Position numbers and translations under genes: made by a program. DNA of 64,000 nt from a virus: positions 58,286-122,285 of IMG/VR virus record IMGVR_UViG_3300032053_000013; one strand, written 5' to 3'. Shown piece after piece: positions 3,001-58,366 of the stretch; the stretch's first letter is position 1; every line of letters begins with the position of its first letter. The notes under the pieces were generated by a model. The model saw only the letters and a list, made by a program, of their open reading frames with translations. It did no database searches and was not told the DNA's origin.

Positions 3001-3355
3001 GCCCATCGTCGCCGGGGACACGGTGAAGTTCAACGGCTCGGGGAATTTCGAGATCTCGGGAACCCCCGGCCTTACGGGCATGAGCGACATCCCGGTCGGC
3101 GTGGCCGCCGTGAACATCGGGGTCGGGTTGTGGGGCAACGTCTACTTCAGCGGGCCTGCGGTGCCCGTCAAGGACAACAGCGCCGGAGGCTTGCTCGCCG
3201 GTGGGTTCGCAATCTTCGACACGGCGGGAGGCGTCAAGAACATCGCGGCTGGGGCCGCCGCAGGGAAGGAACTCGTCTACGGTGGGGCGTGCTCGAAGAT
3301 CGCCGGGGGAATGGCGTACATCTCCCTCGTCATCCAGAAGATCGCCAAGGTGTAA
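2..3355 (+). CDS. Long tail fibre/adhesin-like protein (5' truncated by window)
   Basis: >1100 aa G/T/A/S-rich; TLQxAYxxGNTI motif twice (~173-211, ~2345-2383); internal repeats. Confidence 0.7.
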   Translation: MVGVLDETNGGTGQSALATGDTLYASAANTFSKLGIGNAGDVLTVAGGVPTWQATGAVTLQGAYQGGNTITVTAAEGVPTISNAADATNTLSVARTFAGGGTGVDLSMGAATTGVGFNVLAAGSGDAAFINNTGTGSAFTVQDGGVDVADITAAGAVTITPTSGQTATITTAGAGTLDFNSAAGITIDGVGVSIDNANSSANFSNATNGAAQDLTIGLTGATNSSILLNSTGTGVDAIGLTTSAGGLVASVNGTLTADAASLDLDATTTSHFTVTGAAADATVSSVGGSVNMTASEAAADAINITASAGAGGITASSGTGGITETTTGTMDLNSGPFTLDGTTGSIDFTDTANVTVTGASKDLTVASTGGSVNVTATEAAADAINITASAGAGGITASSGTGGITETTTGTMDLNSGPFTLDGSTVSIDGTDAVNVTATGASKDVTVNSAGGSVNITATENAVDAIKIQSTVGGTEINSAGLLSMDAGASADIDVTGSTTMTSTVATTIEAVGGNLTLDNQFATGKVILMTGTNTAATAVEIKSDNGTVQASVDGTGQADFNGNLDANAGLDVSGGNLTLDSNDIIVNTNKFKVDGATGDTLVAGNLTVQGTITGIQTVDMIIKDNFIQENVGYTTAVALTGGLVTNYLPTATATTTNGAFIAGYGGGSPADAQVTTTGSGTFALGDIIQISGSTDGLNDGFFEVYSHGGTNLLIRTVPGAHATVEPFTRTQFIAMPAPSPAASITKVTVSVIRAGTDGIWETGKGAVTGITYSDLATGTTVTLQQAYDNGNTITLTNADGNLAITTTSAGGGADLTVASAAGSFLATNTGAAKMDLGAAANTVNLNGPLTATGNQTINLGSGQLTTAGNMDVSNGIDMTGGVGLTLSGAGTDLFAADSTAIKLGNTAVAPDATIGSDGTDMVTTMAATANCVVKTGDAAGAKSFIVADSGAVPQMTVTSDGDLTITGTATIPTGESLKVGDVFLNEYGSGMQGKNTSLVPIVAGDTVKFNGSGNFEISGTPGLTGMSDIPVGVAAVNIGVGLWGNVYFSGPAVPVKDNSAGGLLAGGFAIFDTAGGVKNIAAGAAAGKELVYGGACSKIAGGMAYISLVIQKIAKV
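887..1269 (+). repeat. Intragenic duplication, 246-bp (82-codon) period
   Basis: EAAADAINITASAGAGGITASSGTGGITETTTGTMDLNSGPFTLDG encoded twice; 962-1015 identical to 1208-1261. Confidence 0.95.
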
Positions 3356-3375
3356 CAAGATACGGACCAGAGGCC

Positions 3376-3398
3376 GGGGGCTCGGTGAGCCCCCCTTT
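3376..3398 (+). terminator. Possible weak intrinsic terminator
   Basis: GGGGGCTC-GGT-GAGCCCCC hairpin then short T run after fibre gene. Confidence 0.4.
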
Positions 3399-3412
3399 CG
3401 GAGGACGGGTGA

Positions 3413-3946
3413 ATGTCCAAGCACACGAAGATGGCAAGGGCGGCGGTGCCGCCGCCGCAGTCCAGGGGAGTGGGTCCGAGGCTGGTTCCGCCGGGGACGG
3501 CTCCGGTGGCGGTGCGCCAGGAGATCGGGGAGATGGACGCGCTCAAGTACCGGCTCGCGATCCAGAAGGACAACAATCTCAAGGAGAAGCTGAAGAACAT
3601 CGAGGGGCAGAAGGCCCTTCTCGCCAAGGAAGAGGAGAACATCAAGCTGCGGATCGACCTTACCCGGATGGAGAACCGCAGGGACATCGGGCACCTGGAC
3701 ATCGGGCAGGGCGATCAGCTGGCGGACGAGAACGGGAGGTTCTACATCCTCCGCGCCCCGAGGCAGGGGTCGCTCCCCACGATCAAGATCCCGCCCAAGG
3801 CGGGGCCGACAGCGCCGGAGCCTCCTGCCGCGCCCCCGGCGGAGGTGCCCCCGGCGAATCCCGAGGGGGAGGAGGAAGAGGAGGGGGAAGAGGAGGACGG
3901 GGCCACGGAGGGGAGAGGCACGGAAGCCCCCCCGGAGAAAGAGTGA
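3413..3946 (+). CDS. Hypothetical protein (coiled coil, acidic Pro-rich C-terminus)
   Basis: GGAGG upstream, phage-like codon use, fills gap between hairpins. Confidence 0.75.
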   Translation: MSKHTKMARAAVPPPQSRGVGPRLVPPGTAPVAVRQEIGEMDALKYRLAIQKDNNLKEKLKNIEGQKALLAKEEENIKLRIDLTRMENRRDIGHLDIGQGDQLADENGRFYILRAPRQGSLPTIKIPPKAGPTAPEPPAAPPAEVPPANPEGEEEEEGEEEDGATEGRGTEAPPEKE

Positions 3947-43495: not shown

Positions 43496-43523
43496 GTGAC
43501 TAACAGCGGAAAACGGGTATAAT
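43496..43523 (+). promoter_or_regulatory. Variant promoter GTGACT-N16-TATAAT
   Basis: Same spacing; upstream of ssb. Confidence 0.7.
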
Positions 43524-43644: not shown

Positions 43645-44466
43645 ATGAGCATGGGTAACGCATGGTTTGACACGGGAAAGGCCGCGGTGGACCGCGCCAA
43701 CCAGAAGTCCGGGACGGGCAAGGTCTCCCAGCGGTTCTACCTCAAGTCCGGCTCCGAGGCGACGATCATCTTCGTCGACGGCGACAACACCACCGAGGAG
43801 CCGATCGGGAACTTCAAGGAGCACACCTACGAGGCCTCCGACGGCAAGTTCCCCAACTTCTGCACCTGCGTCGGGCCCGCGAAGTGCCCGGTGTGCAAGG
43901 AGGGCCTGCGGCCCTACGACGCCTGGCCGATGACCATCGTCCAGCTCCGGCCAGGGTGGACGGGGCGGGACGGCAAGGAGCACAAGTTCGAGCGCAAGCT
44001 CCTGATCGCGAAGAAGGAGGCGATGCAGCGCATCCTCCGCCACGCCGCCCAGCGCAAGGGGCTGGTGGGCACGGTCTGGAACATCTTCCGCACGGGCGAC
44101 CGGGCCTACACCGTCGGCGACGACTGGCAGTTCGTCCAGAAGGTCGGGGGCGATGGCGTCCTCCTCCCCGCGCAGCGGCGCGCCGAGATGGGGAAGCCGT
44201 TCCACGTCTCCGTGATCGGGTCGGACGGCAAGGCGATCGAGATCGACGCCGAGATCCCGCGGGAGAACCTGGAGCCGTTCAACTACCGCGAGCTGCTCAA
44301 GCCCCGGACCTACGAGGAGCTGATGTCCGACGGCATCGACTTCGACGGGACGAAGCGGCGGGCGGCGTCCTGGGCGGACAAGGACAAGGACGGGGCCGGG
44401 GGGAGGGGGCGGAGGGGAGCGGCGCCGAGGTCCTCGGGGGACGCGGGCGAGGAGGTCCCCTACTAA
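43645..44466 (+). CDS. Phage single-stranded DNA-binding protein (gp32-like)
   Basis: FCTC..CPVC Zn site, acidic tail EEVPY, position between primase and polymerase. Confidence 0.75.
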   Translation: MSMGNAWFDTGKAAVDRANQKSGTGKVSQRFYLKSGSEATIIFVDGDNTTEEPIGNFKEHTYEASDGKFPNFCTCVGPAKCPVCKEGLRPYDAWPMTIVQLRPGWTGRDGKEHKFERKLLIAKKEAMQRILRHAAQRKGLVGTVWNIFRTGDRAYTVGDDWQFVQKVGGDGVLLPAQRRAEMGKPFHVSVIGSDGKAIEIDAEIPRENLEPFNYRELLKPRTYEELMSDGIDFDGTKRRAASWADKDKDGAGGRGRRGAAPRSSGDAGEEVPY

Positions 44467-44486
44467 CGGCCGCGTGGTCGGTACCG

Positions 44487-44554
44487 CCGCCGGACGGGGG
44501 CCCTGAAGGCGTTCTTCAGAAGTCCCTACGCACAAACCCCTGTCCGGCGGTTTT
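44487..44554 (+). other. 14-bp stem with internal hairpin and T tract (terminator or processing site)
   Basis: CCGCCGGACGGGGG pairs with CCCCTGTCCGGCGG; CTGAAG/CTTCAG hairpin inside; TTTT follows. Confidence 0.65.
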
Positions 44555-44681
44555 GTCGCCGTAGCTCAAGGCAGAGCCCCGGCCCGAGACCAAGGTGCTC
44601 GTCACCGATGGTTCATCTCCGGCTTGACCGGAGAATTACACGGGCCGGGAGATGGGGGCTCAAGACCCCCCGGCGACTCCA
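44555..44681 (+). ncRNA. tRNA-like RNA 1: full tRNA body, anticodon loop replaced by 54-nt two-hairpin insert
   Basis: GTCGCCG/CGGCGAC acceptor, T-CCA end, GCTC/GAGC D arm, CCCGGCCCG/CGGGCCGGG stem, GGGGG-CTCAAGA-CCCCC T arm. Confidence 0.75.
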
Positions 44682-44684
44682 GAT

Positions 44685-44754
44685 GGGCTGGTAGGCGGGG
44701 TGGAGATAACGGAGGCCGCTCATTCGAGGTATCCCGACTCGAGCCAGCCCACCA
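44685..44754 (+). ncRNA. tRNA-like RNA 2: acceptor stem plus two arms, no recognisable anticodon arm
   Basis: GGGCTGG/CCAGCCC acceptor with A-CCA; GGCGG/CCGCT and TTCGAG/CTCGAG hairpins. Confidence 0.6.
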
Positions 44755-44755
44755 T

Positions 44756-44832
44756 GCGCCCGTAGCTCAGCAGGATAGAGCGCCGGTTTCCTAAACCGGA
44801 GGCCGCGCGTCCGAGTCGCGCCGGGCGTGCCA
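44756..44832 (+). tRNA. tRNA-Arg(CCT)
   Basis: Cloverleaf: GCGCCCG/CGGGCGT, GCTC/GAGC, CCGGT-TTCCTAA-ACCGG, GCGCG-TCCGAGT-CGCGC, G-CCA. Confidence 0.9.
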
Positions 44833-47040
44833 ATGCCAGAGGACCGGAAGGTAGGCGACGCCAAGGGGAGGCTCCTCACCCTCCTGCGTAAGGGGGGCGG
44901 CGACGAGGGCCTCCGCTCGCTCCTGGAGTCGGACCCGTCCGCGGTCGAGGCCGCGGCCAGGCGAGACGAGGCGAGGAGGAAGAAGATGACCAGCATCGAC
45001 GACGCGGTGTCGGCGCTCAGGAAGGCGGAGTTCTTCTCGCTCGACCTGGAGACGGACGGGCCGTCGAAGGCCGAGGCCACGGACCCCCTCCGGGGGAGGA
45101 TCGTGGGGGTCTCGTTCGCGGCCGGGTTCGAGCCGGGGAAGTCGTGGTGGTTCCCGTTCGACGGGGGGGCGTCCGCTGGGGAGCAGGTCTTTTCCATGGT
45201 CGAGGTGTTCCGGGCGGTCCAGCCCGTCCTGCTCGACCCCGCCAAGACCCTCATCGGGTCCAACTGCAAGTTCGACATCATGTTCCTGAAGGCCAACGGG
45301 GTCGAGGTCCGCAACAGGCTGTTCGACACCGTGGTGGCCGACTGGATGATGGACGAGAACAACAAGAGGCACGGCCTGAAGGAGATCGTCAAGAGGGAGT
45401 TCGACGTCGACCTGGAGAAGTTCACGACGGCGTGGGCGTCGAGGGACCTCGTCCAGGGCAGCCGGTTCGCGGAGTACGCGGTGAACGACGCGAGGTACGC
45501 CTTCCGGGTGTGGGAGAGGGTCCACGCGCCGTTCCTGAACAAGGAGAGCAAGAGGGGGAAGGACGGGGGGGTGACCACCCCGGGGCACGAGAAGATCAGG
45601 AAGCTCTTCACCGAGGTCGAGATGGAGATCGTCAGGATCTTCATGGAGGCCGAGATGGAGGGCGTCTGCCTCGACCTGAAGTACATCGCGGCCCTCAAGG
45701 AGAGGATGGAGAAGGCGAAGGAGGAGGCGGCCCAGAGGGCCTTCGCGGCGGTCGGGCGCTCCTTCAAGATCAGCTCCCCCGAGGAGGTGAGCGTCATCCT
45801 CTTCGGGGCGCCGTCGGAGGACGCGCTCCGCGCCGCCATGGCGTCGAGGGACAAGAGGAAGCCCAAGGCGGCGAAGAGGGACCTGGTCGCGAAGTTCAAC
45901 ACCAAGGGCCTGTTCGAGGCCCCGAAGGGGCTCCTGCCGGTCCCGCTCGGACGGGACGGGCACCAGGCCATACCGGGGGACAACGGGTTCTACTCCACCG
46001 ACGACTCGATCCTGGCCGGGTACGACCACCCGTTCGTCAAGGCGCTGCTCGACTACCGGGCCGCGAGCCAGACGCTCAAGTTCTTCGTGTACGCCTACGT
46101 CGGCGGTGACCCGGAGAACGACAAGAAGATGGGGGTGGCCCGCGACGGGAGGGTGCACCCCGATTTCCATCAGGCCGGGACGATCGCCGGGCGGTTCACC
46201 TGCTCCGAGCCCAACCTCCAGCAGATCGACACCGAGAAGGGCCTGGTCAAGCCCATGTTCGTCCCTCCCCCCGGGCACAAGTTCGTGTGCGGAGACTTCA
46301 ACCAGCTCCAGTTCCGGCTGGCCGGGCACTACGCGAAGAGCTGGTTCGGGAAGTCGAACATCGCGGACGCCTACGCCCTGGGGTCCGACCTCCACGACAG
46401 GACGATGAGGGACCTCGGGTTCGACAAGACGATCCCGGACAAGAAGGCGGCCCGGAAGGAGGCCAAGGGGGTGAACTTCGCGTTCATCTTCGGGAGGGGG
46501 GCCAAGTCGTTCGCCGAGGCGAAGAGGCGCCCACCGGCCGAGGCCAACAAGTTCTACAACGGGTTCCACAAGTCGTACCCCGAGATCCGGTGGTGCTCGG
46601 ACAAGTGCCGCAGGGACCTCTGCGAGAAGGGCTACGTGGAGTCGATCCTCGGCAGGCGGCGCAACTACCCGCAGCACAAGGGCAAGGACCCCGACGCGTA
46701 CGAGAAGAAGGAGTCGGACGGCGGCCCCAGGAGCAACCTCTGGTGGGACGGGTGGGTGGCGTGGAACGCGGTGGTCCAGGGCGCTGAGTCCGACCTGGTG
46801 CGACTCGTCATGAGGAACATCTACCGCGAGATCCTGGAGCGGCGGAAGGCGGACCCGAGGTGGGACACGGTCAAGATGCTCATCCAGGTCCACGACGAGA
46901 TCGTCTACCAGGCACCCGACGAGATCGCCAAGGACGTGGCGGAACTGATGCGCGACAAGGCGGCGAACTCCCTGGCGCTGAAGGTACCCATGATCCTCGA
47001 CATCGGCATCGGGAGCACGTGGGAGGAGGCCAAGCAGTGA
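44833..47040 (+). CDS. polA: Family A DNA polymerase with 3'-5' exonuclease
   Basis: ExoI DLETD, ExoII NCKFD, ExoIII YAVND; motif A DFNQLQFR, B RKEAKGVNF, C VHDE. Confidence 0.95.
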   Translation: MPEDRKVGDAKGRLLTLLRKGGGDEGLRSLLESDPSAVEAAARRDEARRKKMTSIDDAVSALRKAEFFSLDLETDGPSKAEATDPLRGRIVGVSFAAGFEPGKSWWFPFDGGASAGEQVFSMVEVFRAVQPVLLDPAKTLIGSNCKFDIMFLKANGVEVRNRLFDTVVADWMMDENNKRHGLKEIVKREFDVDLEKFTTAWASRDLVQGSRFAEYAVNDARYAFRVWERVHAPFLNKESKRGKDGGVTTPGHEKIRKLFTEVEMEIVRIFMEAEMEGVCLDLKYIAALKERMEKAKEEAAQRAFAAVGRSFKISSPEEVSVILFGAPSEDALRAAMASRDKRKPKAAKRDLVAKFNTKGLFEAPKGLLPVPLGRDGHQAIPGDNGFYSTDDSILAGYDHPFVKALLDYRAASQTLKFFVYAYVGGDPENDKKMGVARDGRVHPDFHQAGTIAGRFTCSEPNLQQIDTEKGLVKPMFVPPPGHKFVCGDFNQLQFRLAGHYAKSWFGKSNIADAYALGSDLHDRTMRDLGFDKTIPDKKAARKEAKGVNFAFIFGRGAKSFAEAKRRPPAEANKFYNGFHKSYPEIRWCSDKCRRDLCEKGYVESILGRRRNYPQHKGKDPDAYEKKESDGGPRSNLWWDGWVAWNAVVQGAESDLVRLVMRNIYREILERRKADPRWDTVKMLIQVHDEIVYQAPDEIAKDVAELMRDKAANSLALKVPMILDIGIGSTWEEAKQ

Positions 47041-58000: not shown

Positions 58001-58366
58001 ATGAAGGCTGCGGCGGACATGGCGGCGGGAAACGACGAGAAGGCGGCGCTGGCGAAGGAGCTGGAGAAGGTCGCCATGGACATCAAGGGGCTGGAGAAGG
58101 AGCGCGACCGGCTGAAGCGGAAGCTCCTCCCCCTCATGTCCCTGGGCGAGCGGATCGGCCTCGTCGAGAAGGGCCAGCGGGAGACGCTGGACGTCTCCGA
58201 CGAGCTGCTCTCCGCGCTGGAGAGGGACCTGGGGCCCGAGGCGGTGCGCCGGGAGGTCAACACCCCCTGGCTCCGCGAGAGGATGAGGGAGGACGCGGCC
58301 CTCGACGCCCGCATCCCGCGGAAGGCGGGGGACCCCTTCCTCACCGTGGGGGAGAAGCGGTCGTGA
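58001..58366 (+). CDS. Hypothetical coiled-coil protein
   Basis: GGAGG RBS. Confidence 0.65.
   Translation: MKAAADMAAGNDEKAALAKELEKVAMDIKGLEKERDRLKRKLLPLMSLGERIGLVEKGQRETLDVSDELLSALERDLGPEAVRREVNTPWLRERMREDAALDARIPRKAGDPFLTVGEKRS

Follow-up and report, generated by a model that had tools for sequence, protein, structure and literature searches.

The locus studied here raises the question of why a phage would carry, immediately 5′ of its DNA polymerase gene (polA), a cassette of three CCA-ended units, each with a 7-bp acceptor stem, of which only one is able to decode. The cassette lies in a window of 64,000 nucleotides (nt), the whole stretch of DNA that was analysed, which corresponds to positions 58,286 to 122,285 of the IMG/VR record IMGVR_UViG_3300032053_000013. 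This record is a virus of 122,285 bases, estimated to be 82% complete and with a G+C content of about 66%, and several sediment metagenomes hold the same phage. Arrays of tRNA genes in phages are usually read as codon supplements or as counter-measures against anticodon nucleases. An initial annotation of the window had proposed a co-processed system of one working tRNA and two tRNA mimics, which could serve as decoys or as aminoacyl/CCA carriers. Our analysis points elsewhere: with confidence that is evenly poised, we read the first two units as transcribed relics of nuclease-driven tRNA-gene turnover and not as purpose-built decoys.

Three CCA-ended units precede polA

From 5′ to 3′, the cassette consists of the following units.

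44555 to 44681, plus strand: unit 1, a Thr-type tRNA body (acceptor, D arm, T arm, and UCCA) with no usable anticodon
44685 to 44754, plus strand: unit 2, a 7-bp acceptor-like stem and ACCA around an apparent Met-type tRNA remnant
44756 to 44832, plus strand: unit 3, tRNA-Arg(CCU), called by ARAGORN and by Rfam (61.6 bits), with an encoded CCA

The coordinates, the 7-bp acceptors, and the encoded CCA of the three units were all confirmed, and so was their tight packing, with a spacer of 3 nt (GAU) between units 1 and 2 and one of 1 nt (U) between units 2 and 3. An independent ENA assembly (L022; the labels L002 to L022 denote relative or comparison loci) is 100% identical to the window across 421 nt that include the entire cassette. 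Thus, the cassette is not an assembly artefact. A canonical tRNA was taken to score at least 29 bits with RF00005 and to have an anticodon stem of 5 bp whose 7-nt loop carries U33 and a purine at 37. By this definition only unit 3 is a canonical tRNA, in agreement with the annotation, and units 1 and 2 are not. The other two, described there as devoid of a usable anticodon, are indeed non-decoding and tRNA derived: ARAGORN made no call for them in its default mode, and no RF00005 match was obtained even at E values up to 10. Nor did the tmRNA, mitochondrial, and relaxed modes of ARAGORN yield anything for either unit, and Rfam, searched at gathering score and at E up to 10, returned only sub-threshold matches to mascRNA and YrlA. 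No family in Rfam has the layout of the cassette, as had been stated.

Unit 1 is a tRNA body with a two-hairpin insert

In unit 1, the acceptor strands GUCGCCG and CGGCGAC are followed by U73 and CCA, and they enclose a D arm (GCUC-AAGGCA-GAGC) and a T arm (GGGGG-CUCAAGA-CCCCC). The "anticodon" stem is 9 bp long and opens into a three-way junction with two hairpins. The unit folds with a minimum free energy of −68.6 kcal/mol (z −5.0), and none of 200 shuffled sequences folded equally well. Its 5′ 29 nt share 83% identity with the tRNA-Thr(UGU) genes of relatives, a value tied by the window's own tRNA-Arg, and the discriminator U73 is common to unit 1 and the relatives' tRNA-Thr genes. The place of the anticodon loop is taken by an insert, for which the fold gives the following parts.

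44584 to 44643, plus strand: insert of unit 1, in place of the anticodon loop
44588 to 44613, plus strand: hairpin 1 of the insert
44616 to 44634, plus strand: hairpin 2 of the insert

The insert is 51 to 60 nt in length and brings four extra stem pairs (three beyond the 26:44 pair) and a junction, AUUACA. No second copy of it was found in the 122-kb genome, and its uniqueness led us to reject a dispersed repeat.

Known structured RNAs were rejected as identities of the unit as well. The match to mascRNA-menRNA (RF01684) at 44601 to 44677 scored 22.6 bits against a gathering score of 42.5. A second tRNA nested in unit 1, which would use the pairing of the mascRNA match and an acceptor GUCACCG at 44601, was dismissed since a diverged variant of the unit (described below) has GCCACCA there. 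The loops of the two hairpins, of only 5 nt each (CUCGU and CUUGA), do not qualify as anticodon loops, and they are tetraloops (CAUG and CUUG) in the variant. Finally, tmRNA and a tmRNA reduced to its tRNA-like domain were excluded by the absence of G3:U70, as the corresponding pair is C3-G70 in unit 1, G3-C70 in unit 2, and C3-G70 in the mini-tRNA of L002 introduced below. Among GenBank phages, matches were confined to the tRNA-Arg part of the cassette. In IMG/VR, a pattern of the unit 1 body had 0 matches, and a pattern of the insert had 22, all in unrelated coding DNA; searches with PolA in IMG/VR, the JGI metagenomes, and the GTDB genomes led to few loci.

Unit 2 is homologous to a mini-tRNA of the closest relative

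Unit 2 pairs GGGCUGG with CCAGCCC in its acceptor, to which A73 and CCA are attached, and the remnant inside lacks the D arm and the 5′ anticodon stem. It can adopt a tRNA-like fold with a T arm of 6 bp and a 9-nt loop, GUAUCCCGA, at −26.3 kcal/mol, but its minimum-energy fold is a rod-like hairpin of −31.1 kcal/mol, so that the tRNA-like fold is worse by 4.8 kcal/mol. Since only the acceptor stem and the CCA are robust, "tRNA-shaped", as all three units had been called, is a weak description of unit 2; it suits unit 1, with its full body, and unit 3. A perfect 7-bp closing stem followed by N-CCA occurs about 30 times in 128 kb, counting both strands, and the chance that such a stem exactly fills the gap between two tRNA-type units is about 1e-5.

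The interior of unit 2 starts with the block GCGGGGUGG, followed by GA, A, and C and then by GGAGG. This 24-nt block recurs in L002, the closest relative (PolA 75% identical), where it forms the 5′ part of a free-standing mini-tRNA of 53 nt that has neither a D arm nor an anticodon arm. When the block pattern was run against 2.9 million IMG/VR contigs, it hit the L002 contig and, otherwise, gave one chance match in coding DNA (L004); we therefore regard unit 2 and the L002 mini-tRNA as homologous. Judged by sequence, both look like Met-type tRNAs that share the same internal deletion, a comparison that was made with the relatives' tRNA-Met genes and in which the multiple alignment is ambiguous for unit 2.

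The slot before polA is a fast-changing tRNA array with HNH genes in two relatives

The slot that holds the cassette, between a gene of 243 to 273 amino acids (aa; 273 in the window) and polA, is a fast-changing tRNA array with 0 to 7 tRNAs in this phage family; its position is conserved, and its content is different in every relative. Five to seven tRNAs with structured spacers are present in L008 to L012 and no tRNA in L014 and L016, while L013 has only an unrecognised tRNA-like unit and L002 has a tRNA-Ile together with the mini-tRNA. Of units 1 and 2, nothing but the 24-nt block of unit 2 was found in relatives at 71 to 75% identity of PolA or a neighbouring protein. A single odd tRNA with anticodon UAA, a short variable arm, and no encoded CCA occupies the slot in L007 (112 to 187) and L021 (2721 to 2796). 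The L021 copy has an 8-nt anticodon loop (CGUUAAAA), and a conserved tract of about 240 nt with CGCCCAUGAGACG lies downstream of this tRNA in both loci; UUA makes up 0.2% of the Leu codons in the window's phage.

Two of these slots contain genes for HNH nucleases next to damaged tRNA copies. At 2641 to 3829 of L002, an intact tRNA-Met (A1-U72 pair) is followed by a low-GC insert of about 1 kb and then by the mini-tRNA. The insert holds an HNH_2 gene on the minus strand (3082 to 3738; 24.9 bits at a cut-off of 21), and a decayed tRNA 3′ fragment ending in ...CCCGCAACCA lies at about 3100 to 3140; L002 has one intact Met-type tRNA and two partial copies. At 2141 to 2988 of L013, a 5′ piece of tRNA-Gly, a low-GC HNH gene (2263 to 2946; phrog_1271, E 2.8e-18), and a rebuilt tRNA-Gly-like unit follow each other, and the acceptor strand is duplicated in the slot. 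The rebuilt unit, 74 nt long and ending 12 nt before polA, combines the acceptor and the T arm of tRNA-Gly into a perfect top half, has two odd hairpins in its middle and no anticodon loop, and was matched by Rfam only below threshold within the tRNA clan. The L013 stretch had no group I intron match. Anticodon-less tRNA copies that keep the top half thus recur in the phage family, and two of the four cases adjoin homing endonucleases.

Based on these loci, we propose that the cassette is a leftover of a tRNA array that the phage had in this fixed slot; the array would be co-transcribed with the replication genes. Unit 3 would be its working product, serving AGG codons. Unit 1 would derive from a Thr-type gene whose anticodon loop was swapped for the two-hairpin insert, and unit 2 would be a composite built around a Met-type gene that has lost the D arm as well as the 5′ anticodon stem. 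Copies disabled in this way could arise as by-products of homing-endonuclease cassettes that invade tRNA genes in the slot, the nuclease gene having since been lost from the window's phage. RNase P and 3′ trimming would liberate tRNA-Arg, and probably also unit 1, as discrete RNAs. Given that both disabled units retain the acceptor/T-arm half, RNase P can probably still excise them. At most, they would be passive punctuation marks for RNA processing, placed between polA and the mRNA upstream of it, and they would be tolerated or mildly useful. That they are relics is what we infer from the relatives, because the adjacent nuclease gene is present in L002 and L013 and not in the window. The units have no match in Rfam families or GenBank phages, yet pseudo-tRNA remnants in phage tRNA clusters shaped by homing endonucleases are already known.

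The arrays of the relatives show further features between their tRNAs. The inter-tRNA spacers of L008 (2496 to 2627 and 2704 to 2767) are conserved in L011 (2503 to 2631 and 2708 to 2770). The 64-nt spacer among these forms a long hairpin with a UUCG tip (z −4.1) and shows a marginal similarity to the unit 1 insert over 27 to 31 nt. A gap of 410 nt inside the tRNA array of L011 (1875 to 2284) contains GGUAGUACGAGAGGAGCCCGG, a near-copy of the consensus of the 23S rRNA sarcin-ricin loop, and had no Rfam match at E up to 1.

A diverged variant keeps the architecture of unit 1

A diverged copy of unit 1 is present in one sediment run and differs by 17 listed substitutions and several indels, with up to three further, unlisted substitutions near the ends of the aligned piece; its sequence was rebuilt from the listed differences before folding. 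In this copy, C87 is replaced by U with pairing retained, hairpin 2 is remodelled and still present, C91A disrupts one stem pair, an inserted A splits the GG of the D loop, and the T loop differs at four of its seven positions. One stem change was observed where about 3.9 were expected (p about 0.1, a Poisson estimate from two sequences only). Strand asymmetry of folding is absent from the reference and modest in the variant, in which the plus strand is more stable than the minus strand.

Contigs that differ from the window, which may come from more than one genome, show 20 substitutions and 8 gapped positions over the 166 nt from 44554 to 44719 (unit 1 into unit 2), 6 differences over the 80 nt from 44690 to 44769 (unit 2 and the start of tRNA-Arg), and 2 differences over 78 nt of the adjacent polA. 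As far as these sequences tell, units 1 and 2 appear to evolve fast, which we count in favour of turnover relics. A strain variant (run X10, record 4) has 86 other letters at 44770 to 44856, which replace most of tRNA-Arg and the first polA codons, and it retains unit 2 and polA on the two sides of the replaced tRNA; this looks like a cassette-like swapping of the last tRNA.

Several observations weigh against an origin of units 1 and 2 as turnover relics. No nuclease open reading frame was found in the window's 366-nt slot, and no homologue of the relatives' HNH genes in the 122-kb record. This record also lacks an intact tRNA-Thr or tRNA-Met that could have been the spare copy, the tRNA-Arg being its sole tRNA. 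In the mini-tRNA of L002, the 7-bp acceptor is paired perfectly, and a canonical T arm (UUCAAGU) and the ACCA end are both retained. The rebuilt variant of unit 1 folds to the same architecture as the reference, at −62.4 kcal/mol: its acceptor 3′ strand, T stem, and CCA are unchanged, the pair C31-G88 has become G-C in a compensatory manner, and hairpin 1 has grown from 4 to 7 bp through coordinated indels that gave it a new loop. Such structural conservation fits purifying selection as well as it fits recency or templated mutation, and templated mutation in quasi-palindromes could perfect hairpins without selection. Lastly, the insert of unit 1 is only marginally similar to spacer B of the relatives' arrays (z 4.0; 1 of 200 shuffles). 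The annotation had named a known-family match, a lack of compensatory change in homologues, or units never released as discrete RNAs as grounds for abandoning its proposal. By these grounds the picture is mixed: we found no such family, and we found one compensatory pair with preserved hairpins in the diverged variant.

Functional tRNA mimics are the strongest alternative

Because the variant keeps the architecture of unit 1 and has one compensatory pair, a function as a mimic is possible. In this explanation, which we think unlikely, units 1 and 2 are selected, anticodon-less tRNA mimics released by RNase P with ready CCA ends, and they would occupy or divert enzymes whose recognition is limited to the acceptor/T-arm half or to the CCA end, such as tRNA-targeting defence toxins, CCA-modifying toxins, tRNA-modifying enzymes, or synthetases. 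Alternatively, they would serve as obligatory RNase P punctuation, through which polA mRNA becomes leaderless and the mRNA upstream is stabilised. A broader form, equally doubtful to us, joins unit 1 and the mini-tRNAs related to unit 2 in a selected class of anticodon-less tRNA-body RNAs that act as sponges or decoys for host enzymes of this kind or as a processing module that makes polA mRNA leaderless; if this were true, the T and D loops, deviant and quick to change as they are, would belong to an arms race.

The full tRNA body of unit 1, which folds far better than its shuffles, speaks for such a role, as do the at least 17 changes and the indels that the variant has absorbed with a compensatory pair, a G-U replacement, and a longer hairpin 1. 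The greater stability of its plus strand argues in the same direction, but the reference shows no strand asymmetry, the same variant is mismatched in its anticodon stem, has the GG of its D loop interrupted, and differs at four T-loop positions, and the statistics from two sequences are weak. The intact acceptor stems and CCA ends in all units and their tight packing also favour mimicry, and the packing is such that the units would be transcribed together and jointly excised, in keeping with the co-processing that had been claimed for the cassette; for unit 2, however, the tRNA-like fold lies above the minimum. The perfect minihelix of the L002 mini-tRNA and the perfect top half of the L013 unit next to polA can be read in favour of the class, whereas two facts stand against it: nothing similar was found in GenBank phages or IMG/VR, and units 1 and 2 are missing, beyond the 24-nt block, from the relatives mentioned above. 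The abutment of the polA AUG and a tRNA 3′ end in three lineages would suit a processing module, but a defined polA 5′ end requires the last unit only.

The more specific proposal of designed decoys or aminoacyl/CCA carriers fared worse. Neither unit has G3:U70 or another identity set for anticodon-independent charging, and no partner genes were found. The slot content that changes in every relative, the absence of both units from relatives except for the unit 2 fragment, and the HNH genes in the slots of the two relatives with similar anticodon-less units all argue against a designed system. Taken together, these data lead us back to relics of nuclease-driven turnover as the preferred reading.

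No excision restores a usable anticodon loop in unit 1

It is very improbable, in our estimate, that unit 1 is an intron-containing tRNA gene from which a host enzyme or another splicing route removes the two-hairpin insert to give a decoding tRNA, along the lines proposed for the short introns of Lak megaphage tRNAs or for archaeal introns. Short introns are documented in phage tRNAs (PMC6784885), and variation is concentrated in the insert, with the body stems conserved in their known parts, the pattern expected of an intron between exons. With introns allowed, ARAGORN did return a 76-nt tRNA with a 51-nt intron at 31/32, but this sole solution is a forced tRNA-Cys(ACA) with A34, the pyrimidine C37, and a Watson-Crick pair between positions 32 and 38. 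Excision at the canonical 37/38 position leaves C33 in the reference and G33 in the variant, with GAG versus GUG as the anticodon. Since neither sequence offers U33 with a purine at 37, no excision restores a usable anticodon loop, and any intron-containing tRNA was rejected on the ground that a 7-nt loop with U33, purine 37, and the same anticodon in homologues was not obtained.

The individual intron classes failed too. A script scan found no complete hBHBh′ (bulge-helix-bulge, BHB) motif in the reference or the variant, so an archaeal-type intron was rejected, and the relaxed BHB matches in unit 1 are not common to both. A group I core takes about 200 nt or more, far beyond the 51 to 60 nt of the insert, which had no Rfam match at E up to 10. 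A tRNA-shaped mini-intron of the Lak type was rejected because the insert forms no acceptor plus T-arm minihelix and has no terminal CCA: its only CCA is near its 5′ end, within a helix, and a T-arm-like stretch contains a mismatch and does not persist in the variant. The 122-kb record had no match to RtcB, RNA_ligase, T4 Rnl1, or PolyA_pol, the Rnl1 search having had no positive control.

An archaeal host with a splicing endonuclease would be conceivable from the binning of relatives' contigs in archaeal metagenome-assembled genomes (MAGs). A near-identical relative virus is represented by L019 and L020 (GTDB contigs CAZKEV010000002.1 and CAYNQC010000005.1), one binned as a Methanomicrobiales MAG and the other as a Bathyarchaeia MAG. 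However, the virus is nearly the same in both bins and the bins are of different phyla, so at least one of them is wrong. The replication genes (DnaB, DnaG-type primase, RecA, and MerR) look bacterial.

Unit 3 serves a common codon, and T loops deviate

The job of unit 3 is obvious, because AGG is the most used Arg codon of the phage, with 29.8% of Arg codons or 27 per 1,000 codons, as counted on 40 long plus-strand open reading frames of the window. Codon usage is strongly purine-rich for a genome of 66% G+C, GGG accounting for 45.7% of Gly codons beside the share of AGG. Non-canonical T loops had been claimed for all three units. This holds for units 1 and 3, each of which is one base off TTC; in unit 3 the loop is UCCGAGU, with C at position 55, and in unit 1 it is polymorphic in the population (CUCAAGA, UUCAAGA, and UCCAAUU). 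In unit 2, the proposed T arm belongs to the fold that is not of minimum energy. In phage T4, the homing endonuclease SegB is encoded in a tRNA cluster, spreads itself together with adjacent tRNA genes, and has GGTTCRANTCC, a T-arm motif, as its recognition site (PMC2330249). By analogy, the deviant T loops in the slot may reflect escape from homing nucleases that recognise the T loop, an escape that would form part of the turnover proposed above.

The cassette is probably co-transcribed with replication genes

The surroundings of the cassette comprise the following features.

43645 to 44466, plus strand: 273-aa gene ("ssb" in the initial annotation), conserved neighbour of the tRNA slot in all relatives
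44486 to 44554, plus strand: long branched hairpin with a stem of about 15 bp, then UUUU, from the fold of 44467 to 44560
44833 to 47040, plus strand: polA, with Pfam DNA_pol_A and 3′-5′ exonuclease domains

We infer co-transcription of the array with these genes from three observations: no promoter-like site was found in the slot, the hairpin and its U-tract directly adjoin unit 1, and the AUG of polA directly follows the last CCA. As to a promoter for the cassette transcript, the closest candidate is a sigma-70-like match at 43496 to 43523 (GTGACT, 16 nt, TATAAT; 10/12), about 120 nt upstream of the 273-aa gene. The hairpin and its UUUU terminate directly at the first base of unit 1, where a simple terminator scan made no call, and relatives have a GGGGAGGG/CCCCUCCCC hairpin with a U-rich tract at this position, where L008 and L011 both show such a structure. 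The hairpin may attenuate transcription as a terminator or, once RNase P has cut, stabilise the 3′ end of the mRNA upstream.

The polA ATG, which was placed by comparison with L002, L007, L008, and L011, begins at 44833, on the base right after the CCA of tRNA-Arg. In three lineages, the polA start lies 0 to 1 nt past the CCA of the last tRNA (44830 to 44835 in the window; 2997 to 3003 in L008 and L011), and in all three there is no room for a Shine-Dalgarno site before the start codon. Processing of the tRNA 3′ end may thus create a leaderless polA mRNA. The PolA protein of L002 (P0002) has 1,150 aa and contains an intein domain (PF14890).

The gene order common to the phage family is DnaB, primase, the 243- to 273-aa gene, the slot, PolA, a small gene, an SNF2/DEAD helicase, MerR, and RecA. 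The position between ssb and polA that had been assigned to the cassette is sound on the polA side, which Pfam supports; on the other side, the 273-aa protein had no match in Pfam or the Protein Data Bank (PDB) and matched only phrog_17226, a PHROG family of unassigned function. By eye, three features stand out in the protein: the motif H-x12-CxC-x5-CxxC, a linker rich in Gly and Arg, and an acidic, aromatic end, EEVPY, which is DEVPY, DEVQY, or DEVKY in relatives. These features resemble single-stranded DNA-binding (SSB) proteins of the gp32 type, and the protein could be one of them, an identity backed by no database match.

Comparison with known systems

Several known RNAs invite comparison. 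mascRNA (RF01684), the tmRNAs that consist of a tRNA-like domain only, and the alanine minihelices of phages resemble the units in that a CCA-ended acceptor/T-arm half is cut out by tRNA-processing enzymes. In contrast to mascRNA, unit 1 scores far below the gathering threshold, and the pairing of the match is not conserved in the variant; unlike tmRNA and alanine minihelices, the units have no G3:U70, and ARAGORN found no tmRNA. The tRNAs of Lak megaphages carry short "enigmatic" introns that are not group I, in the anticodon region (Devoto et al. 2019, PMC6784885). They share with unit 1 a short non-group-I insert at the anticodon region of a phage tRNA, and one published case is likewise a tRNA-Thr (PMC6784885). 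Lak exons, however, restore a normal anticodon loop and some Lak inserts are tRNA-like, whereas unit 1 restores no normal loop and its insert, which has neither a T arm nor CCA, is simply a junction with two hairpins.

These comparisons bear on how phage tRNA clusters are read. Units of this type should not be counted as tRNAs or as introns in annotation. Should they be functional, phages would encode tRNA mimics of a new kind; should they be relics, they record the remodelling of phage tRNA clusters by selfish nucleases and would suggest why phage tRNAs can have odd T loops. Under both readings, the polA start codon lies flush with a tRNA 3′ end, which suggests that the 5′ end of this replication-gene mRNA is defined by tRNA processing.

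The comparison with SegB of T4 has two sides. SegB is a GIY-YIG enzyme, whereas the genes in the relatives encode HNH nucleases and the window lacks any nuclease gene; T4 is not known to have tRNA copies that bear hairpins or lack arms and yet retain CCA and both acceptor strands. In T4, as may have been the case here, a nuclease gene within a phage tRNA array drives the replacement of neighbouring tRNA genes from a site in a conserved tRNA motif, and in L002 and L013 the HNH genes likewise sit in the slot beside truncated or rebuilt tRNA copies. Phage tRNA arrays may thus contain a third ingredient, namely, non-decoding tRNA derivatives with a processing-competent half, which in the relatives stand beside homing endonucleases.

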